From positions 736,001 through 800,000 of the forward strand of contig CAWGMQ010000006.1 in NCBI GenBank assembly GCA_963823665.1: 64,000 bases of DNA, read 5' to 3'. Shown here in pieces: positions 22,451-31,088 of this stretch. The stretch comes from an uncultured Planctomycetota bacterium (GTDB lineage: Bacteria > Planctomycetota > Planctomycetia > Isosphaerales > Isosphaeraceae). Every line of letters begins with the position of its first letter. Positions within the stretch are counted from its first letter, which is position 1. A model generated the notes under the pieces. That model saw only the letters and a program-made list of their open reading frames with translations. It had not been told where the DNA came from and made no database searches. The translations under genes and the position numbers were made by a program.

Positions 22451-22582
22451 GTCGATCTCCCGCGCCGGCACGGTTAATTGCGTCCAGGCCACGGTCTTCG
22501 GCTGATCTCCCGCACGAGCGCTGGTAAGATATCCCCGTCGGCCAAGGGCACTCAGCGTAGCGGGGCGAAGCGATCAGCGAGC

Positions 22583-25500
22583 ATGGGTGCAAGCGAAGAG
22601 TTGGAAAGCACGCGGAAGCATGGTTTTGACTCGGACGAGTCTCCGGGAGACGTTACGTCCATCGGCAGCGACGTGGCTGCTGCGCTGCCGCGGGAGCACA
22701 TTGGCCGTTATCGCATTGAAAAGGTCTTGGGCGAAGGCGGGTTTGGCCTCGTCTATCTGGCGCATGATGACCAGTTGAGCCGCCGGGTCGCGATCAAGGT
22801 TCCCCATCGCAATCTGGTGAATCGCCCCGAGGACGCCGTGCCGTATCTGATCGAGGCCCGCACCGTCGCGAGTCTCGATCATCCCAATATCGTGCCGGTC
22901 TACGACGTCGGCAGCAGCGAGGACTGTCCGTGCTTCATCGTCTCCAAGTACATCGACGGCACAGATCTTGCCGCAAGGCTCAAGCAGTCACCGCTGGGCC
23001 TGCACCAGGCAATCGATCTGGTGGCGACGATTGCCGATGCGCTGCACCACGCTCACCGCAAGGGACTTGTTCACCGCGACATCAAGCCGGGGAACATCCT
23101 GCTTGATTCAAGCGGCAAGCCGTTCGTTGCGGACTTCGGGTTGGCGCTCCAGGAAGCGATGGTCGGCCACGGCCCGAATTATGCTGGCACGCCTGTTTAT
23201 ATGAGTCCCGAGCAGGCCCGGGGCGAAGGGCATCGTGTTGACGGACGATCAGACATCTTCAGTCTTGGGGTGGTCTTGTACGAGCTGCTCACGCTCAGGC
23301 GCCCGTTCAAGGGGGAAACGAAGGACGAGATCTTTGAGCAAATCGTGAGCTACGAGCCGCGTCCATTGCGCCAGTACGAAGACGCGATACCGGTTGAGCT
23401 GGAACGGATCTGCCTCAAATCGCTTTCAAAGCGAGCCGCGGAACGTTACACCGCGGCCAAGGATCTCGCTGACGAGCTGCGGCACTTCCTCGCCCAGGAG
23501 CCCAGGGCGGCGCCTTCGGCTCTTGGCCCACCCGCGGTCACCACGGCCGAAGGACCGCAGTCGCCGTCGGCGGGCTCGCACGCATCCGCCAGATCCACCA
23601 CGCCGACTTCCGACGGCAAGCCGATCAAGATCGTGCCCAAAGGCTTGCGGGCGTTCGACGCCTACGACGCCGACTTCTTCCTCGAGCTCCTGCCGGGCCC
23701 ACGCGACCGTGACGGGCTGCCAGACGGCATCCGGTTCTGGAAAACGCGCATCGAAGAAATGGATTCGGATAGCACGTTTTCGGTCGGGCTTATCTGCGGC
23801 CCCTCGGGATGCGGGAAATCGTCGCTGGTGAAGGCGGGCTTGCTTCCTCGCCTTGCGGAGAACGTGATTGCGGTCTACGTCGAAGCCACGGGCAACGACA
23901 CGGAGACCCGGCTGTTAAGTGGCCTGAGGAAGCGCTGTCCGTCTCTGCGCGAGAACCTCGGTTTGAAGGATTCGCTCGCATCGTTGCGTCAGGGCCAGGG
24001 CATTCCGCCCTCGAAGAAGGTGCTGATTGTTCTGGACCAGTTTGAGCAATGGCTCCATTCGAATCAGGACGTGGAGAACACCGAGCTCGTGCAGTCTCTG
24101 CGTCAATGCGACGGTGGGCGAGTTCAGTGCATGGTCATGGTGCGCGATGACTTCTGGATGGGCGTGATCCGCTTCATGAGGGCGCTCGAAGTTCGCCTCG
24201 TCGACGGAGAGAATACCGCGGCGATTGATCTGTTCCCGACCCGGCACGCGCAGCGCGTCCTGGCTGCGCTCGGCCGCGCGTTCGGCGCTCTACCGGAGGG
24301 TGTTGCCTCCGTCGGCAAGGAACAGACGGAGTTCTTGAGGCAGGCCGTCTCCGAGCTGGCGCAGGACGGCAAGGTGATCTGCGTTCGGCTGGCGCTGTTC
24401 GCCGAAATGATGAAAGCCAAATCCTGGACGCTCGCCACATTGAAAGAAGTTGGCGGCACGAAAGGCGTTGGCGAAGCGTTTCTCGAGGAGACGTTCAGCG
24501 CGCCTTCGGCTCCTCCGCAGCACCGCTATCATCAGAAAGCGGCGCGAAACGTGCTCAGGGCTCTCTTGCCCGAATCTGGCACGGATATCAAGGGGCACAT
24601 GCGGTCTTTTTCGGAATTGCTGGACGCGTCGGGCTATAGAAGCCGCCCGAAGGAATTCGATGAGCTGATCCGCACACTCGACAGCGAGGTCCGCCTCATC
24701 ACACCGACCGACCCCGAGGGCAAAGAAGAGACTGCTCTGTCTCGTCAAAGCGGTGACGAGCGATATTACCAACTAACGCATGACTACCTCGTTCACTCCC
24801 TGCGGGACTGGTTGACCCGCAAACAAAAGGAGACGCGCCGCGGCCGCGCGGAATTGCTGCTTGCCGACCGCGCATCGATTTGGAATGCACGCGCCGAGAA
24901 CCGGCAACTTCCGTCGCTCTGGCAATGGATGCAGGTTTGCTCGCTCACCGATCGGAAGAAGTGGACGGCGCCAGAGCGGAAGATGATGGCAAAGGCGGGC
25001 AGTTATCACACTTCGCTCGCCCTGGCTGCTGGCGTGCTGATGGTCGTCGCCTTGGCCGCGGGTTTGGCGATCCAGCGACAAATCGCTGAACAGCGGAAGG
25101 CGTCACAGGCCGTCGCGTTCGTGAAGCGGCTGCTGGATGCGGAAACCGGTCAAGTACCAGGCATCATCGCCGAGATGGCCGCGTATCGAAAGTGGACTGA
25201 TCCACTCTTGCGCGGGGCGATCGACAAGCCGGCGGCCAGCTCCCGCGACAAGCTCCACGCCAGTCTCGCCCTCTTGCCGATGGATTCGACGCAGGTAGCT
25301 TATCTTTACGGCCGGCTACTCGACGCCGAGCCGAACAAAGTGTCGGTGATCCGCGACGCACTTGCGCGGCACAAGTCCGAGTTGCTGGACAAGCTCTGGA
25401 CGGTCGCGGCGCGACCGGAAAAGGGTCATGAAACACAACGGCTGCGGGCGGCCGGCGCGCTGGCAAAATATGACCCGGAGGGGCCCAGGTGGCCACTGAT

Positions 25501-27106
25501 CGCGGCGAATGTCGCCCATGACATGGTGCGGGTGCCTCCGGTCTACCTGGCCTTGTGGATGGATCTGCTCGAGCCAGTCCGCACCAGGCTCCTCGGTCCC
25601 TTGTCAGTAATTTATCTAGACATCGACGGGCCAGAGACGGAGCGGTCGTTGGCGACCGACATTCTGGCTGAGTACGCCGGCGATCAACCGAGCCTGCTTG
25701 CCGATCTGCTGATGGACGCCAACCTGAAGCAGTTCCCTGTGATCTACGACAGATTCAGAGACCAGGGCGCGGCAGGCCTGCCCGTTCTGAGCGGCGAGCT
25801 CGACAAGAAACCGTCGTCGGGCTCGAACGGTGCGAGCAAGGAGAAGCTGGCGAAACGGCAGGCGAACGCGGCGGTGGCGTTGTTGCGGATGGACGTGCCA
25901 CAGAAGGTCTGGCCGCTCCTGGCGCACAGCTCCGACCCGAGTGTGCGGAGCTATCTGATTCATCGCCTCGGCCCGCTGCACGCCGACCCGCAGGCGATCG
26001 TCAAGCGGCTGGAGGAGGAGCCGGAGGCATCGATCCGCCGGGCCTTGATCTTGAGCCTGGGTGAATACGGCGAAGCCGACTTTGCGGTCGAGGATCGCGC
26101 GGCCCTCCTACCGACGTTGCAACAAATCGATCAGACCGCCACCGATCCCGGTCTACATGCGGCGGCGGAGTGGCTGCTGCGCAAGTGGCAGCAGACGGCG
26201 TGGCTGGCCCAGGTGAACGACAACTGGGCGAAGAGCAACGATCTGCGCGAGAAGCGGCTGAAGGACATCAAGCAGTCACTGTCGCTGCACAAAGAAAAGT
26301 CCGCGCCGCAGTGGTACGTGAGCGGTCAGGGACAGACCATGGTGGTCATACCCGGGCCACTCGAGTTTCTCATGGGGTCGCCAGTGATCGACCTCGACCG
26401 GTCCAAAGACGAGCAACAGCATCGCAGGCGCATCGGCCGCACGTTTGCCCTTTCCGCCAAGCCGGTGACGCTGGAGCAGTATCGGCAATTCCAGAAGGAC
26501 TACGACCAGAGTGCGCTCTTAAGCGGTATCGCCGAGCTGCCGGTCAGGCGCATGACGTGGTACATGGCCGCGACGTACTGCAACTGGCTCAGCATGAAAG
26601 AGGGGATTCCCGGAGAAGAGTGGTGTTACGAAATCAAGGGCGAGGCCGCCAAACTCCGGCCAAAATACTTGAGTCTCACCGGTTATCGCTTGCCCACGGA
26701 GCCGGAGATGGAATACGCGATTCGTGCGGGCGCGGCAACCAGCCGCTACTACGGGGATGCGGAAGAGCTGCTGACCGAATACGTGTGGTACCAGAAGAAC
26801 TCTCAGGATCACACCTGGCCCGTCGGGCTTCTGAAGCCGAACGATCTGGGTTTCTTCGACATTGTCGGCAACGTGTACACCTGGTGTTCCGGAGACCTCC
26901 AGGGATTATGCCGTCGAACAAGCCGTGCGCCAGTCGAGGACGAGGAAGATGGCCCAGACGTGATCAGCACGGTCAAGCGTGCGCGGCGCGGCTGCTCGTA
27001 CACGCGCATGGCGCCAGAGACTCGCTCAGCCTTCCGCAACGACCAGGAGCCGACGAATCGAAACGGCGGCAACGGAATGCGGCTGGCGAGGACTCTGGTG
27101 CCCTAG
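22583..27106 (+). CDS. Ser/Thr protein kinase + nSTAND-type NTPase + FGE-sulfatase (SUMF1) domain protein
   Basis: LGEGGFG, VAIK, HRDIKPGN, DFG, YMSPEQ; GPSGCGKSS and LDQFEQ; TM segment; FLMGSP, YRLPTEPEMEYA, KPNDLGFFDIVGNV. Confidence 0.92.
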   Translation: MGASEELESTRKHGFDSDESPGDVTSIGSDVAAALPREHIGRYRIEKVLGEGGFGLVYLAHDDQLSRRVAIKVPHRNLVNRPEDAVPYLIEARTVASLDHPNIVPVYDVGSSEDCPCFIVSKYIDGTDLAARLKQSPLGLHQAIDLVATIADALHHAHRKGLVHRDIKPGNILLDSSGKPFVADFGLALQEAMVGHGPNYAGTPVYMSPEQARGEGHRVDGRSDIFSLGVVLYELLTLRRPFKGETKDEIFEQIVSYEPRPLRQYEDAIPVELERICLKSLSKRAAERYTAAKDLADELRHFLAQEPRAAPSALGPPAVTTAEGPQSPSAGSHASARSTTPTSDGKPIKIVPKGLRAFDAYDADFFLELLPGPRDRDGLPDGIRFWKTRIEEMDSDSTFSVGLICGPSGCGKSSLVKAGLLPRLAENVIAVYVEATGNDTETRLLSGLRKRCPSLRENLGLKDSLASLRQGQGIPPSKKVLIVLDQFEQWLHSNQDVENTELVQSLRQCDGGRVQCMVMVRDDFWMGVIRFMRALEVRLVDGENTAAIDLFPTRHAQRVLAALGRAFGALPEGVASVGKEQTEFLRQAVSELAQDGKVICVRLALFAEMMKAKSWTLATLKEVGGTKGVGEAFLEETFSAPSAPPQHRYHQKAARNVLRALLPESGTDIKGHMRSFSELLDASGYRSRPKEFDELIRTLDSEVRLITPTDPEGKEETALSRQSGDERYYQLTHDYLVHSLRDWLTRKQKETRRGRAELLLADRASIWNARAENRQLPSLWQWMQVCSLTDRKKWTAPERKMMAKAGSYHTSLALAAGVLMVVALAAGLAIQRQIAEQRKASQAVAFVKRLLDAETGQVPGIIAEMAAYRKWTDPLLRGAIDKPAASSRDKLHASLALLPMDSTQVAYLYGRLLDAEPNKVSVIRDALARHKSELLDKLWTVAARPEKGHETQRLRAAGALAKYDPEGPRWPLIAANVAHDMVRVPPVYLALWMDLLEPVRTRLLGPLSVIYLDIDGPETERSLATDILAEYAGDQPSLLADLLMDANLKQFPVIYDRFRDQGAAGLPVLSGELDKKPSSGSNGASKEKLAKRQANAAVALLRMDVPQKVWPLLAHSSDPSVRSYLIHRLGPLHADPQAIVKRLEEEPEASIRRALILSLGEYGEADFAVEDRAALLPTLQQIDQTATDPGLHAAAEWLLRKWQQTAWLAQVNDNWAKSNDLREKRLKDIKQSLSLHKEKSAPQWYVSGQGQTMVVIPGPLEFLMGSPVIDLDRSKDEQQHRRRIGRTFALSAKPVTLEQYRQFQKDYDQSALLSGIAELPVRRMTWYMAATYCNWLSMKEGIPGEEWCYEIKGEAAKLRPKYLSLTGYRLPTEPEMEYAIRAGAATSRYYGDAEELLTEYVWYQKNSQDHTWPVGLLKPNDLGFFDIVGNVYTWCSGDLQGLCRRTSRAPVEDEEDGPDVISTVKRARRGCSYTRMAPETRSAFRNDQEPTNRNGGNGMRLARTLVP

Positions 27107-27218: not shown

Positions 27219-28211
27219 TCACCCAGACCTCGCCAGCACTCTCTCGCGGTTCTCCGCCGTGCGGCCGCGCGGTCGAGGGAGAGGGACGGGAGCTTGCTGG
27301 AACAGATCCGCAGGTAAGAACGACGCACACCCGACCAGCATGATCAGCCCGAATGTCCACATTCCCAGGCAGGCGCCAATGCCGACATGCAGCACCAGGG
27401 CTCCAGCCAGCACCAGCGGCCTGAAGCGCTTCTGCCAGATGAACACGCAGAACGAGATTTCCCACAAGATCGAGACATGCGACATCGCGTTGACGACCCG
27501 CGGATGCCACGCTAGCCAGGTCATGTCGAGAGACTGGTACTCGAGATTGGCAAACGCCCGCCACATCGCCTCGCCGTCCCACCAGGAGGGGCCCTGCAGC
27601 TTGGAGACGCCCGCAAAGAAATAGATAACGCACATATGCACCTGGATCAACCGGATGGCGAGATTGGCGCCCGCCGAGGCCGCGGCGGGGGCGGTCGAGC
27701 CGGACCGCTTTCGTGCGAGCCATCGGTCTAGAGAGAAGGCTGCACCGCTGGGGCCGATCGCCAGGTACAGGTTCAGCATGATGTTGATCTGGTCGAGGCC
27801 AAACAGCGCGGCCGGAACTCGATTGGCATACGACACCGCGGCCAGAAGCGAGAGAATCGAGGTGACGCGAGTGAACAGGCCGAGTGTGAAGAGAACGAAC
27901 ACCACCATCGAAAGGGCGTAGGCGGCCCAGATCCAGCCATCCGGCACGAGGTACCAGAATGAGTAGTGGTACTGGTTTTCGTGCATGCGTCGCACGAGCG
28001 CCGGGCTCAGCCAGCCAGTCGAGCTGAAGAATTCGCGAAGCGCCAGGCCCCAGACCGCATGAGTGTAAACCAGCATGAGGCCGGTCATGATCCGGATCAC
28101 GCCGAGGAGCGCCGGATTGGCCGGCGTGTACCAGAACTTGTTCCAGTCGGCAGCCACCGACTGTGCCGTCTGGGTGAAATAACGGGCCGCGAGTCTCAGT
28201 GGACCTTGCAT
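27219..28211 (-). CDS. HTTM-domain membrane protein (SdpB / vitamin K-dependent carboxylase-like)
   Basis: Multiple TM helices; LGLFTR, GLDQI, FSLDRW, IYFFAGVSKLQGPSWWDG, LHVGIG. Confidence 0.85.
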   Translation of the reverse strand: MQGPLRLAARYFTQTAQSVAADWNKFWYTPANPALLGVIRIMTGLMLVYTHAVWGLALREFFSSTGWLSPALVRRMHENQYHYSFWYLVPDGWIWAAYALSMVVFVLFTLGLFTRVTSILSLLAAVSYANRVPAALFGLDQINIMLNLYLAIGPSGAAFSLDRWLARKRSGSTAPAAASAGANLAIRLIQVHMCVIYFFAGVSKLQGPSWWDGEAMWRAFANLEYQSLDMTWLAWHPRVVNAMSHVSILWEISFCVFIWQKRFRPLVLAGALVLHVGIGACLGMWTFGLIMLVGCASFLPADLFQQAPVPLPRPRGRTAENRERVLARSG

Positions 28212-28834
28212 TTGAAGACCTTTATCGTCTCGCTTCGATAACTCGCCGGATCGGTTAATTTCATGCCGTTCTGAACATCTTCCCGTGTCGGCAGTCCATG
28301 GCGGTGCCCGGTCAGGGTGACTTGCACCGCATGATATTCGTGGCAAAGATGTTCGGCGTAGGAGTCGAGCCAGGCTTGCTGGATCTCTTCGGGCGTATCG
28401 CGCAGCGTGTCCGCAAGGTGCTCGGTCAGCATGAAGTGGCGATGATAGAGGAGGCGCGGCGGGGTCTTACGAGTGGGCATGTAGCCGGTTGCGACTGTTC
28501 CATCGGCTCGCTCGGCCTCGAAGGAGACGAGAAAGCTCTCACTCGGCTCTGGTGCGAAGAAGTGATACCCGTGGTTCAGGTAGACGAGGTCGAGGTATGG
28601 GTGAAAAACATTCCAGGCTGACAGGATCAGCTCGGAAGTGGGCGCGACCGAAGCGGGTGCAATGACGATGGCCGCGAGATGAAAGACCAGCCAGCAATTA
28701 ACGGCCCACCGAAGCACCTTCCAGCGGGTGCCCTGGCGAGCCGTCGGGGTTTCGGTCTGTCCCGCAGGAGCGCTTGACCGAGAGCTCACGTCGGGATCTC
28801 CCACCTTGGATCGATCGGACTGCTGGACCCTCAT
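28196..28834 (-). CDS. SdpA/DUF5819-like membrane-anchored protein
   Basis: One TM segment (WLVFHLAAIVIAP), then PY...YLNHGYHFFAPEP resembling the QxWxxFAPxP motif; overlaps the HTTM gene start. Confidence 0.6.
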   Translation of the reverse strand: MRVQQSDRSKVGDPDVSSRSSAPAGQTETPTARQGTRWKVLRWAVNCWLVFHLAAIVIAPASVAPTSELILSAWNVFHPYLDLVYLNHGYHFFAPEPSESFLVSFEAERADGTVATGYMPTRKTPPRLLYHRHFMLTEHLADTLRDTPEEIQQAWLDSYAEHLCHEYHAVQVTLTGHRHGLPTREDVQNGMKLTDPASYRSETIKVFKCKVH

Positions 28835-28934
28835 CGGGTCAGAGGGCTCCCTCCGTTTTCCCGCGAGGACGATTGCACAAGTATAACTCACACCCGCCAG
28901 GGAGCGGCCCGGCGGGTGTGAAATCACACTTAAC

Positions 28935-29744
28935 TTAATTGCTGGCGACCGTCGTGGCCGGTTCCTGGCCTTCGAAGGCAACCGCGACGAACGCTTCCTG
29001 GCCGGTGGTGACGGTCGTCTGGGCCGTCTTGGTCAGGGTTTTGCCGTCACGAACGACCTCAACCTTGACGGTGTAGAGGTGCGTTTCGCCGGCCTGGATG
29101 GCCGGGGTGACGAAACGGCGCTGCGTCCCTTCGACCGTCATCAGTTGATCCTGGAGATACAGCTTGGCGTCAGCAGGAACATTGATGTTCAGGTACGCGA
29201 CGCCGGTGTTGGCCGGTGCGGCAACCGCAGGCGCTGCATTCTGACTCATGTAGACCTGGCTGCTGGGGTAGCTGACGGCCGCGTAGCCGCCGGCCGATCC
29301 GCCGCCTGACCCACCACTCGACCCGCCGCCGCTCGACCCGTGCGAGAAGAGCTTATGGCCGCCGCCACTCGACCCGCCGCCGCTCGACCCGTGCGAGAAG
29401 AGCTTGTGGCCGCCGCCGGACGACCCGCCACCGCTCGACCCGTGCGAGAAGAGCTTATGGCCGCCGCCACTCGACCCGCCACCGCTCGATCCGTGAGAAA
29501 AGAGCTTGTGGCCGCCGCCTGACGACCCACCACCGCTCGATCCGTGAGAAAAGAGCTTGTGGCCGCCGCCTGACGACCCACCACCGCTCGATCCGTGAGA
29601 AAACAGCTTGTGGCCGCCGCCGGAGGAGCCGCCGCTCGATCCGCCGCTCGAACCGGAGCCGGCCGACGCCGAGCTGGTCACGGCGAAGGTCAATGCCAGG
29701 GCACCCAGGGAGCCCGCGAATGTCGACCAACGAGAACGATTCAT
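28935..29744 (-). CDS. Secreted protein: signal peptide + 6 x 17-aa HKLFSH-(G/S) repeats + TIGR03000-like C-terminal domain
   Basis: MNRSRW...SSASA signal; six HKLFSH(G/S) repeats; VPADAKLY...G..RRFVTP.I..G..Y.VKVEVVRDG. Confidence 0.85.
   Translation of the reverse strand: MNRSRWSTFAGSLGALALTFAVTSSASAGSGSSGGSSGGSSGGGHKLFSHGSSGGGSSGGGHKLFSHGSSGGGSSGGGHKLFSHGSSGGGSSGGGHKLFSHGSSGGGSSGGGHKLFSHGSSGGGSSGGGHKLFSHGSSGGGSSGGSGGGSAGGYAAVSYPSSQVYMSQNAAPAVAAPANTGVAYLNINVPADAKLYLQDQLMTVEGTQRRFVTPAIQAGETHLYTVKVEVVRDGKTLTKTAQTTVTTGQEAFVAVAFEGQEPATTVASN
29310..29620 (-). repeat. Coding tandem repeat, 6 x 51 bp
   Basis: Units recur at 29340, 29391, 29442, 29493, 29544 and 29595 with synonymous differences. 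Confidence 0.95.
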
Positions 29745-30109: not shown

Positions 30110-30257
30110 ACGATTAACTGAACTTTGACATCGATTTGGCGGGGTAAGTCGCGTGCTCTTCCGGATAATCGGTAAGATCAGAAAAACCTGTTATTCGGGG
30201 CCTCCTCATCAGGGAGGTACTTAATGGTCAAAACGACTGAAATATCGGGTGAAATTG

Positions 30258-31088
30258 ATGGTTCCGACGATTGAGCAGGTCAGGCAAGCGGCGTACCACC
30301 GATGGACCAAGCGCGGCCGGTTTCATGGGGACGACCACGAAGATTGGCTCGCCGCTCAAGATGAGTTGACCTTCAGCCTCAATTATCAAACGGCAGCCGC
30401 CTATCCGCTCGACGGCCCGGGAGCGCTGATCCTCAATGATCCACGCGGTCGCTACTGCCGGTTCTGCGAACGGACAGCAGCGCAAGTACCGTTCGGAGGC
30501 CCGATGCCTCTGCTCGCCGGTGGCTCGTCGCCTTCGCTCGCGAGCTCGTCGATGTGCAACGAATGCCGGAACGGCTTTCGCGATGCCCAGGCTGACCGGC
30601 TGGAGCGGTTTTGGATGGATCTGGCAGAGGGCGCGGGTCAACGCGATGGAAGCGCCCGAGCCGGACGATCGGCCAATTACTCACTGGCTGTTTTCAAGGC
30701 GCTGGCCGGTTGTGCTCTCCTGATCATGCCGGCAAGCGACCTGAGTTATTTCGTCGATACGCTCGAGTGGGTGGGCAATCCGCACGACGCGAGCGACAGC
30801 CGGCTTCTGGAGCGGGATGCAACGTGCGTGGTCTACCTGGCGCCATTCTGGTCAGAGCGATCTTGGATCTCGCTGGCGCGGCGCATCGAGAAGGACGCTC
30901 CCCTGCCGTACATGGTGTCGTTGCTGGCGGTAGGCGGCGTGCTCATGCAGATCTCGCTCCCCTTGTGCATCCGCGATCAAGACTTGGACGGCCGCTCCGT
31001 GCGCATCCCGCGCCGCTCGTTCACGGAGGGGGAAGGCGAATCGTTCCAGCAGGCTCGGATGCTCGAGTTTGGGCTCGAGCGTGGATGA
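30258..31088 (+). CDS. DUF2934 domain + degenerate HNH-like zinc-binding domain protein
   Basis: [15 protein letters not shown]...[10 protein letters not shown] (DUF2934); CRFC...CNEC. Confidence 0.65.

Follow-up and report, generated by a model that had tools for sequence, protein, structure and literature searches.

The locus at positions 27219–29744 of a 64,000-nt stretch of planctomycete DNA (the whole stretch is called the window) encodes a probably secreted Gly/Ser-rich repeat protein (gene 1), a small protein with a single membrane helix (gene 2), and an HTTM membrane protein (gene 3). Our analysis suggests that the products of genes 2 and 3 form a split relative of the vitamin K-dependent carboxylase GGCX and modify Gly-flanked serines of the likely secreted gene 1 protein at the outer face of the inner membrane. 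Because of the co-occurrence detailed below (60 of 72 and 18 of 20 loci; 6 of 8 genomes), the repeat protein is very probably the substrate of the pair. We put at roughly 0.5 the probability that the pair removes the α-proton of Ser via a menaquinol-driven base to give D-Ser or dehydroalanine. An initial annotation, made from the sequence of this locus, had already postulated a system for extracytoplasmic modification whose substrate would be the repeats, a view that the co-occurrence supports; the precursor elements that it singled out have fared less well.

The three genes exist and are co-oriented, as first annotated; all lie on the minus strand, and genes 2 and 3 share 16 nt. The signal peptide assigned to gene 1 stands by inspection and by a −1 Ala that is invariant across 29 relatives (alignment A3); it was left unflagged in a 19-residue hydropathy scan at a threshold of 1.5, which found no hydrophobic segment at or above this value anywhere in the gene 1 product. 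Residues 29–153 (125 residues) are composed solely of Gly, Ser, His, Lys, Leu, Phe, and Ala; the annotated absence of Asp and Glu holds, and Cys and Thr are likewise missing. Six copies of HKLFSH recur within the Gly/Ser spacers at a 17-residue period, and the repeat copies diverge at synonymous codon positions, so that the array is no collapsed-repeat artefact. All 15 GSSGG motifs found in the six frames of the window fall inside gene 1.

The conservation of these elements was assessed in the best 80 of 130 confirmed loci. Gene 2 is present in 78 of these loci, and a G-S-x-G repeat protein stands beside the pair in 60 of the 72 that have at least 1 kb of upstream DNA and in four of the eight with less, affording 64 precursors (locus L068, with three motifs and a Gly/Cys/Tyr-rich TIGR03000 protein, was scored negative). 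HKLFSH recurs in only one of the 64. Relative to shuffles that preserve composition, G-S-x-G is 3.4-fold and GSSGG 14-fold enriched, and GSG is ∼20-fold rarer; in 62 of the 64 precursors, the observed motif count was matched by at most 5 of 500 shuffles, a result that is somewhat inflated because the repeat regions were delimited by the motif itself. Asp and Glu together make up 0.8% of the repeats, and in many precursors the G-S-x repeats run on almost without a break and discrete cores are lacking. By these comparisons, the conserved element of gene 1 is the G-S-x-G ‘spacer’ rather than HKLFSH. The initial annotation had viewed HKLFSH as the modified core and the TIGR03000 domain, which it recognized correctly, as a handle bound by the enzymes. 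Both features exist in this copy, and a loosely similar hydrophobic-plus-basic (basic/aromatic) core occurs in 43 of 64 precursors, but with HKLFSH confined to one relative and TIGR03000 absent from 39 of the 64, this explanation is very improbable. Moreover, the second TIGR03000 gene of the source genome, a methyltransferase-like fusion by inspection, has no HTTM pair in the 3.2 kb examined. In the literature searched, no paper linking TIGR03000 with planctomycetes was found.

Linkage extends to 18 of 20 further close-clade loci, chosen from a class-wide search and in some cases from genomes that overlap the earlier sample. Pairs without a linked precursor, which the initial annotation held would speak against such a system, do occur locally, in 12 of the 72 loci (one of these has a stop-interrupted copy and one a degenerate copy); but an unlinked precursor was recovered in five of the eight unlinked-pair genomes tested, with signal-peptide precursors found in three of five genomes by pattern search and in two of three more by profile. 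None was found in the remaining three genomes searched, G254, G255, and G405, the first two of which have a completeness below 90% or contamination above 5%. The precursor profile matches six of eight Ser-clade genomes (see below), none of 20 genomes that lack gene 2 (those listed among 47 negatives), and none of seven with the sister clade only. A scan with a C-terminal pattern returned five loci, all with the pair within 2.5 kb; four were known before, making this a weak independent test. Permissive DNA patterns for tandem G-S-x-G repeats gave too much background to be of use.

Alternatively, the repeats could be flexible segments that stay unmodified, and the pair could help in export, folding, or anchoring without catalysis or have some other molecule as its target. 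Gly/Ser runs are typical of linkers, and some pairs, including one in the source genome, lack a linked precursor. Nevertheless, this appears improbable: the repeats show an ordered motif beyond composition, with GSSGG overrepresented and GSG depleted, the catalytic-type residues of the enzyme are invariant (see below), and the association persists at genome level. In addition, most of the displayed precursors among the 39 that lack TIGR03000 stop straight after the repeats and therefore leave nothing to link.

The source genome holds further loci of this kind. A second Ser-clade pair on contig C4 (L088:6546-8113), with an HTTM protein 55% identical, has no linked precursor and falls, in the tree, among pairs that are likewise unlinked (L028, L036, and L045). 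On contig C8 (L282:3638-4891), a protein of ∼410 residues without a Pfam match ends in a tail of five G-S-x-G motifs (four of them GSSGG) followed by a terminal Tyr, as in many precursors; it is a possible substrate in trans. Two additional HTTM pairs (L089:6783-8358 and L090:6036-7856) contain frameshifts that are possibly long-read errors. The pair on C6 is of a more distant type, and the HTTM protein on C7 runs on into a CxxC-bearing domain that by eye resembles DUF393.

The relationship of gene 3 to GGCX is apparent from profile and fold. As annotated, it is an HTTM protein (PF05090, 41 bits against a cut-off of 27.7, residues 28–302) with the motif IYFFAGVSKL; it fails the SdpB model TIGR04033 (42 bits against 178.4). 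A search of the PDB with the single sequence gave no match, and a profile of 54 sequences was needed to match the human GGCX chains (E 3e-6). The gene 3 model (pLDDT 93) matches GGCX only, with 15 chains at E ≤ 0.001 and a TM score of ∼0.6. Five gene 3 residues, Lys204 (Lys218 in GGCX), Trp210 (Trp223), Glu251 (Asp263), His275 (His287), and Phe287 (Phe299), are invariant in all 54 sequences, and the Lys of IYFFAGVSKL aligns with the catalytic Lys of GGCX, as initially recognized. Lys218 of GGCX deprotonates the quinol, Trp223 fixes it, and Phe299 stacks on CO2, and the substrate Glu carboxylate is held by Asn159, His160, and Tyr395 (PMC12647623; bioRxiv 2025.02.09.637231). In gene 3, a Gly138-Leu139-Asp140 loop takes the place of the Asn159/His160 segment, with a register that is uncertain by one residue. 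Since the Lys218-type residues are invariant and this segment is replaced, the quinol-activating side of GGCX is retained in sequence and the Glu pocket is lost, and the annotated departure from Glu carboxylation is upheld by both the pocket and the repeats. The source genome carries two futalosine-pathway menaquinone genes.

These features also bear on the possibility of genuine quinol-dependent carboxylation, in which the pair would add CO2 to the α-carbon of Gly or Ser to yield aminomalonate-type residues. The equivalent of Phe299, at the CO2 site, is invariant, MloH α-carboxylates Asp (PMC12186529), and a preprint proposes carboxylation for DUF5819–HTTM pairs (bioRxiv 10.64898/2026.08.19.745780). 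We regard this as rather unlikely, given the replaced Asn159/His160 pocket and the scarcity of Asp and Glu in the repeats, and it does not account for a fixed residue that is without exception Ser, Cys, or Thr (see below). Human GGCX and bacterial MloH share with gene 3 the membrane-domain fold and the five equivalent residues, and differ in that here the enzyme is split in two, Asn159/His160 gives way to G-x-D, and the substrate lacks Glu and Asp; gene 2 moreover gives no structural match to the lumenal part of human GGCX.

Gene 2 belongs to no Pfam or NCBIfam family, although its own family is large (1,587 clusters at 50% identity, E ≤ 0.001), and similar genes are present in 154 of the 201 genomes sampled from the class and in 8 of 251 drawn from across the phylum. 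Its first ∼70 residues comprise a helix, in which one His is invariant, and a FAP-x-P loop; the single transmembrane helix and the motif YHFFAPEP (28567–28544) are both present as annotated. The start of the protein aligns weakly with annotated DUF5819 proteins (E 4e-5 to 2e-3, 17 sequences), and a profile comparison with DUF5819 covers 62 columns at 63% probability. DUF5819 (PF19136) is exceeded at cut-off by none of the 54 family members and by no protein in the genome, and one of 45 further relatives matches at E 0.02. The SdpA model TIGR04034 does not match gene 2 and is weak in 13 of 54 relatives (best E 0.0098). The label ‘SdpA-like’ therefore survives as a distant resemblance without membership in either family, and gene 2 seems to be only distantly related to DUF5819/SdpA. 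A similar FAP loop is seen by eye in the C-terminal extension of a Haladaptatus HTTM protein, where its score is not significant. An Atlas search with gene 2 returned two unnamed clusters. A PDB sequence match to a stretch of cellulose synthase (E 0.05) was judged to be due to chance.

The initial annotation had envisaged a complex of genes 2 and 3 with TIGR03000; for its gene 2–gene 3 part, prediction with a 183-residue fragment of gene 2 gave a score of 0.94 against 0.00 for the best control; the mark for a pass is reached by 116 of 157 solved pairs and by 2 of 215 mismatched pairs. The runs concur in at least 98% of contacts, and the partner has a pLDDT of 90. In the predicted interface, residues 132–139, 203–210, and 283–286 of gene 3 face residues 59–71 and 97–107 of the gene 2 fragment; the YHFFAP loop and a conserved PRLLYHR segment lie within it. 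By this prediction, the two proteins join to form a two-part relative of vitamin K-dependent carboxylase. Gene 2 may supply the counterpart of the C-terminal helix and lumenal clamp of GGCX; the complex prediction scores above its mark, and the gene 2 fold searches list no GGCX chain.

Common to three enzyme lineages is an exported protein in which Ser, Cys, or Thr stands between small residues. In a tree of 95 HTTM sequences, all 62 Ser-linked and 11 unlinked proteins form one clade (FastTree support 0.77) that does not include the Cys-linked proteins; seven Cys-linked rows bore the label ‘none’ when the tree was made. In the sister clade, a divergently transcribed precursor with small-Cys-x-small repeats accompanies 12 of 16 loci, with none in the other four. 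These Cys repeats often surround the same kind of basic/aromatic core as in the Ser precursors, and the frameshifted third pair of the source genome follows the same plan. The third lineage was sampled as 80 Streptomyces-type DUF5819–HTTM loci, 75 of them with enough upstream DNA, which are close kin and are counted as one lineage. An ice-binding-domain protein lies upstream in 75 of 75, and at least three G-[S/T]-[S/T]-x-G motifs occur in 74 of 75 versus 1 of 75 on the reverse strand, the repeats being of G-T-T-x-G type.

Individual loci show additional features. In the sister planctomycete clade (L284–L295; L090:8117-8920), the divergent precursor is rich in small-Cys-Tyr/His-small repeats, and in Isosphaeraceae-like genomes it opens with a lipoprotein-like signal ending in Cys. 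L301 and L302 carry Ser-clade precursors, and the one in L302, which combines 12 G-S-x-G with 9 G-C-x-G motifs, is a possible intermediate between the Ser and Cys substrate types. The Streptomyces operon (L098:1432-4921, L099:1681-4942, L103–L182) opens with the gene for an exported ice-binding protein (PF11999) that bears Gly-Thr-Thr repeats and a tail rich in His, Gly, Lys, and Pro; DUF5819 and HTTM come next. A RiPP-like cluster (RiPP: a peptide that is made by ribosomes and post-translationally modified) on a Bacillus mycoides plasmid (L100:2596-8511) contains two small exported paralogues that share a C-terminus, DUF5819, HTTM, and DUF393, together with an S8 peptidase and a ThiF-family gene.

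The Ser/Cys/Thr switch among lineages would equally suit nucleophilic acceptors, and the pair could in principle take a sugar, acyl, or lipid group from a donor in the membrane and attach it to the side-chain O or S. The fold offers a lipid-sized pocket, and Gly-flanked Ser/Thr runs are generally known as frequent glycosylation sites. Such transfer is unlikely, however, as the quinol-activating residues of GGCX are retained, no transferase or donor-synthesis gene is among the conserved neighbours of 104 loci, and the literature consulted contains no HTTM precedent. Azole formation, which reportedly takes place in the Gly-Ser and Gly-Cys contexts of microcin B17, was also considered and rejected: the genome (91.9% complete) contains no YcaO, and the loci have no conserved extra neighbour.

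Because the base-generating residues of GGCX are kept and its Glu pocket is gone, removal of an α-proton would be the simplest chemistry. In the proposed mechanism, the YHFFAP loop of gene 2 is predicted by the model to close over the Lys204 site. Lys204 would deprotonate menaquinol, which O2 would convert to a strong base as in GGCX, and this base would abstract the α-proton of Ser within G-S-x-G. The resulting carbanion could be reprotonated from the opposite face, with Asp140 as a candidate proton donor, to give D-Ser with no change in mass; alternatively, it could shed water to give dehydroalanine (−18 Da). Ser, Cys, and Thr are the residues able to eliminate after α-deprotonation. The product would likely be the entire polypeptide, modified at many positions and with a structural role or one at the surface, and TIGR03000 may be carried as optional cargo.

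Precedents for this arrangement exist in two other settings. In Bacillus subtilis, the SdpA-SdpB-SdpC and YitP-YitO-YitM systems likewise combine a small membrane partner and an HTTM protein with a co-encoded exported precursor; SDP is cleaved to a short peptide, and SdpAB are required for its maturation (PMC5719810, PMC6818787, PMC13343845). The triad resembles them in the exported precursor, with its signal peptide (by inspection) and its linkage to the pair in 60 of 72 loci, and differs in that gene 1 is polar and built of many repeat copies, lacks a hydrophobic C-terminal toxin, and has no conserved immunity gene beside it. By extension, the pair might drive cleavage of the GSSGG spacers to release many short His/Lys-aromatic peptides that act as toxin or signal, as SdpAB matures SDP; dehydroalanine is an established hydrolysable site. 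This is quite unlikely, considering that no protease, exporter, or immunity gene is conserved near the 104 loci, that discrete cores are missing from many precursors, and that the Streptomyces repeats are attached to a folded ice-binding domain.

The second setting is provided by the linaridins, whose clusters contain an HTTM gene and LinL (PMC9927463) and whose products contain Thr-derived dehydrobutyrine and D-amino acids (PMC9927463, PMC10373908, PMC9811515, PMC10849128). SinL and grmL are proposed epimerases (PMC9927463, PMC9811515, PMC10373908), and the epimerase mechanism is called undefined in reviews. The maturases (the HTTM domain of CypH/LinG with CypL/LinL) are similar to our pair in joining an HTTM protein to a small partner. 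The triad differs from linaridin clusters in having no α/β-hydrolase, methyltransferase, decarboxylase, or transporter, its neighbours being a kinase fusion and a DUF2934 protein, and in its Sec-type signal in place of a PxxxTP leader and its long Ser repeats without Thr. No LinL-named model is among the family matches of gene 2 relatives. CypH and CypL reportedly perform both dehydration and epimerization. By analogy, then, the pair may work like SdpAB and the linaridin maturases, yet it fails their family criteria.

Several considerations tell against α-proton removal from Ser by a split GGCX-like pair. The same three residues, Ser, Cys, and Thr, serve equally as acceptors of O- or S-linked groups, and the modified position could be x or Gly instead of Ser. 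As for the substrate, the Ser-clade genome G405 yielded neither a linked nor an unlinked precursor, the precursor profile is only modestly sensitive (its true matches reach only E 1e-5 to 3e-11) so that its negatives are soft, and since related genomes do not count independently, the numbers come down to about three observations at the level of lineages. With respect to the enzyme, gene 2 fold searches retrieved no GGCX chain, either with Foldseek (no match at E ≤ 0.001) or with VIA-align (best Z 4.9 among 48,161 chains); ‘split GGCX’ therefore rests on the complex model, the fused halophile protein, and the preprint, and the complex pass may be an effect of likeness to solved GGCX structures. 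Lastly, one review assigns cypemycin dehydration to kinase/lyase enzymes instead (PMC10880069).

The predicted split architecture itself has been reported for a DUF5819–HTTM pair (bioRxiv 10.64898/2026.08.19.745780). Such pairs share with ours an adjacent one-helix partner and HTTM protein in a predicted complex, the Lys, Trp, and Phe that are conserved at the vitamin K site, and an identical gene order in plasmid records; gene 2 differs in failing DUF5819 scoring. The accessible part of the preprint names no substrate and proposes carboxylation, in contrast to the Glu-free repeat substrate class described here. We did not find a Ser/Cys/Thr repeat substrate class in the literature searched, which excludes subscription journals, and the preprint supplement may list such pairs.

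The features of the locus are collected in Table 1. Its relatives are from Planctomycetota, the top one 89% identical, and Tautonia (loci L013 and L049) is an example of a carrier in culture. The hairpin 3′ of gene 1 would fit a precursor message in excess of the enzyme message; z < −2 is reached in just 19 of 61 related loci, so it is given little weight, and a conserved attenuator hairpin is not established. Matches in a promoter scan of the locus were near chance level. No fourth conserved gene was found, the largest cluster beyond the triad and antisense frames covering 11 of 104 loci. A convergent gene at 22478–27106 (+) encodes a 1542-residue fusion of Ser/Thr kinase, nSTAND1 NTPase, HEAT repeats, and an FGE-sulfatase-like domain, and its position beside the triad is not conserved in relatives. 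On the other side, a divergent gene at 30249–31088 (+) encodes 279 residues with an N-terminal DUF2934 domain and a CxxC...CxxC segment, and is separated from gene 1 by ∼500 bp of intergenic DNA of lower GC content.

Table 1. Features of the three-gene locus (window coordinates).
Feature	Position	Strand	Basis
Gene 1, precursor and likely substrate, 269 aa	28935..29744	-	Open reading frame; homologous precursors adjoin the pair in 64/80 loci
Predicted Sec signal peptide, gene 1 aa 1-28, A-S-A site	29661..29744	-	Inspection: basic N-terminal end, apolar stretch
Repeat region, gene 1 aa 29-153, 15 GSSGG motifs and six HKLFSH cores	29286..29660	-	Sequence reading
TIGR03000 domain, gene 1 aa 183-252, optional module	28989..29198	-	63.5 bits against cut-off 43.1; in 25/64 related precursors
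Strong RNA hairpin, terminator- or stabiliser-like, directly 3′ of gene 1 stop	28876..28934	-	−38.8 kcal/mol, z −6.6
Gene 2, 212 aa counted from ATG (start uncertain)	28196..28834	-	One membrane helix with invariant His, YHFFAPEP loop, periplasmic α/β domain
Gene 3, 330 aa, HTTM membrane protein with GGCX membrane-domain fold	27219..28211	-	HTTM score, profile, fold match
Gly138-Leu-Asp140 loop of gene 3, in place of GGCX Glu-binding N159/H160 segment	27792..27800	-	G138 and D140 invariant in 54/54
Lys204 of gene 3, aligned with GGCX catalytic K218	27600..27602	-	Invariant in 54/54; profile alignment

For bacterial HTTM proteins with SdpA-, DUF5819-, or LinL-type partners, a poorly understood enzyme family related to human vitamin K-dependent carboxylase, this locus offers a probable natural substrate that is unusually simple: a 17-residue repeat in six copies that is free of acidic residues, Cys, and Thr. 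The catalytic Lys lends itself to a control, and counterparts with Cys and Thr exist in nature. If the pair proves to be an epimerase or dehydratase that works processively in the periplasm, it would be a useful tool for peptide engineering. As gene 2-like genes are found in 154 of 201 genomes of the class, the chemistry would be a common and unrecognized part of planctomycete envelopes. More speculatively, and with doubt outweighing confidence, split GGCX-like enzymes might constitute a quinol-powered system, widespread and needing no ATP, by which long exported polypeptides are rewritten at dozens of sites, in lineages tuned to Ser, Cys, or Thr repeats, yielding D-patterned chains or His/Lys-cross-linked dehydroalanine chains that serve as cell-surface materials and not as antibiotics. 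If true, this would apply to most Planctomycetia and to many Streptomyces, and the action of SdpAB would be explained as well.

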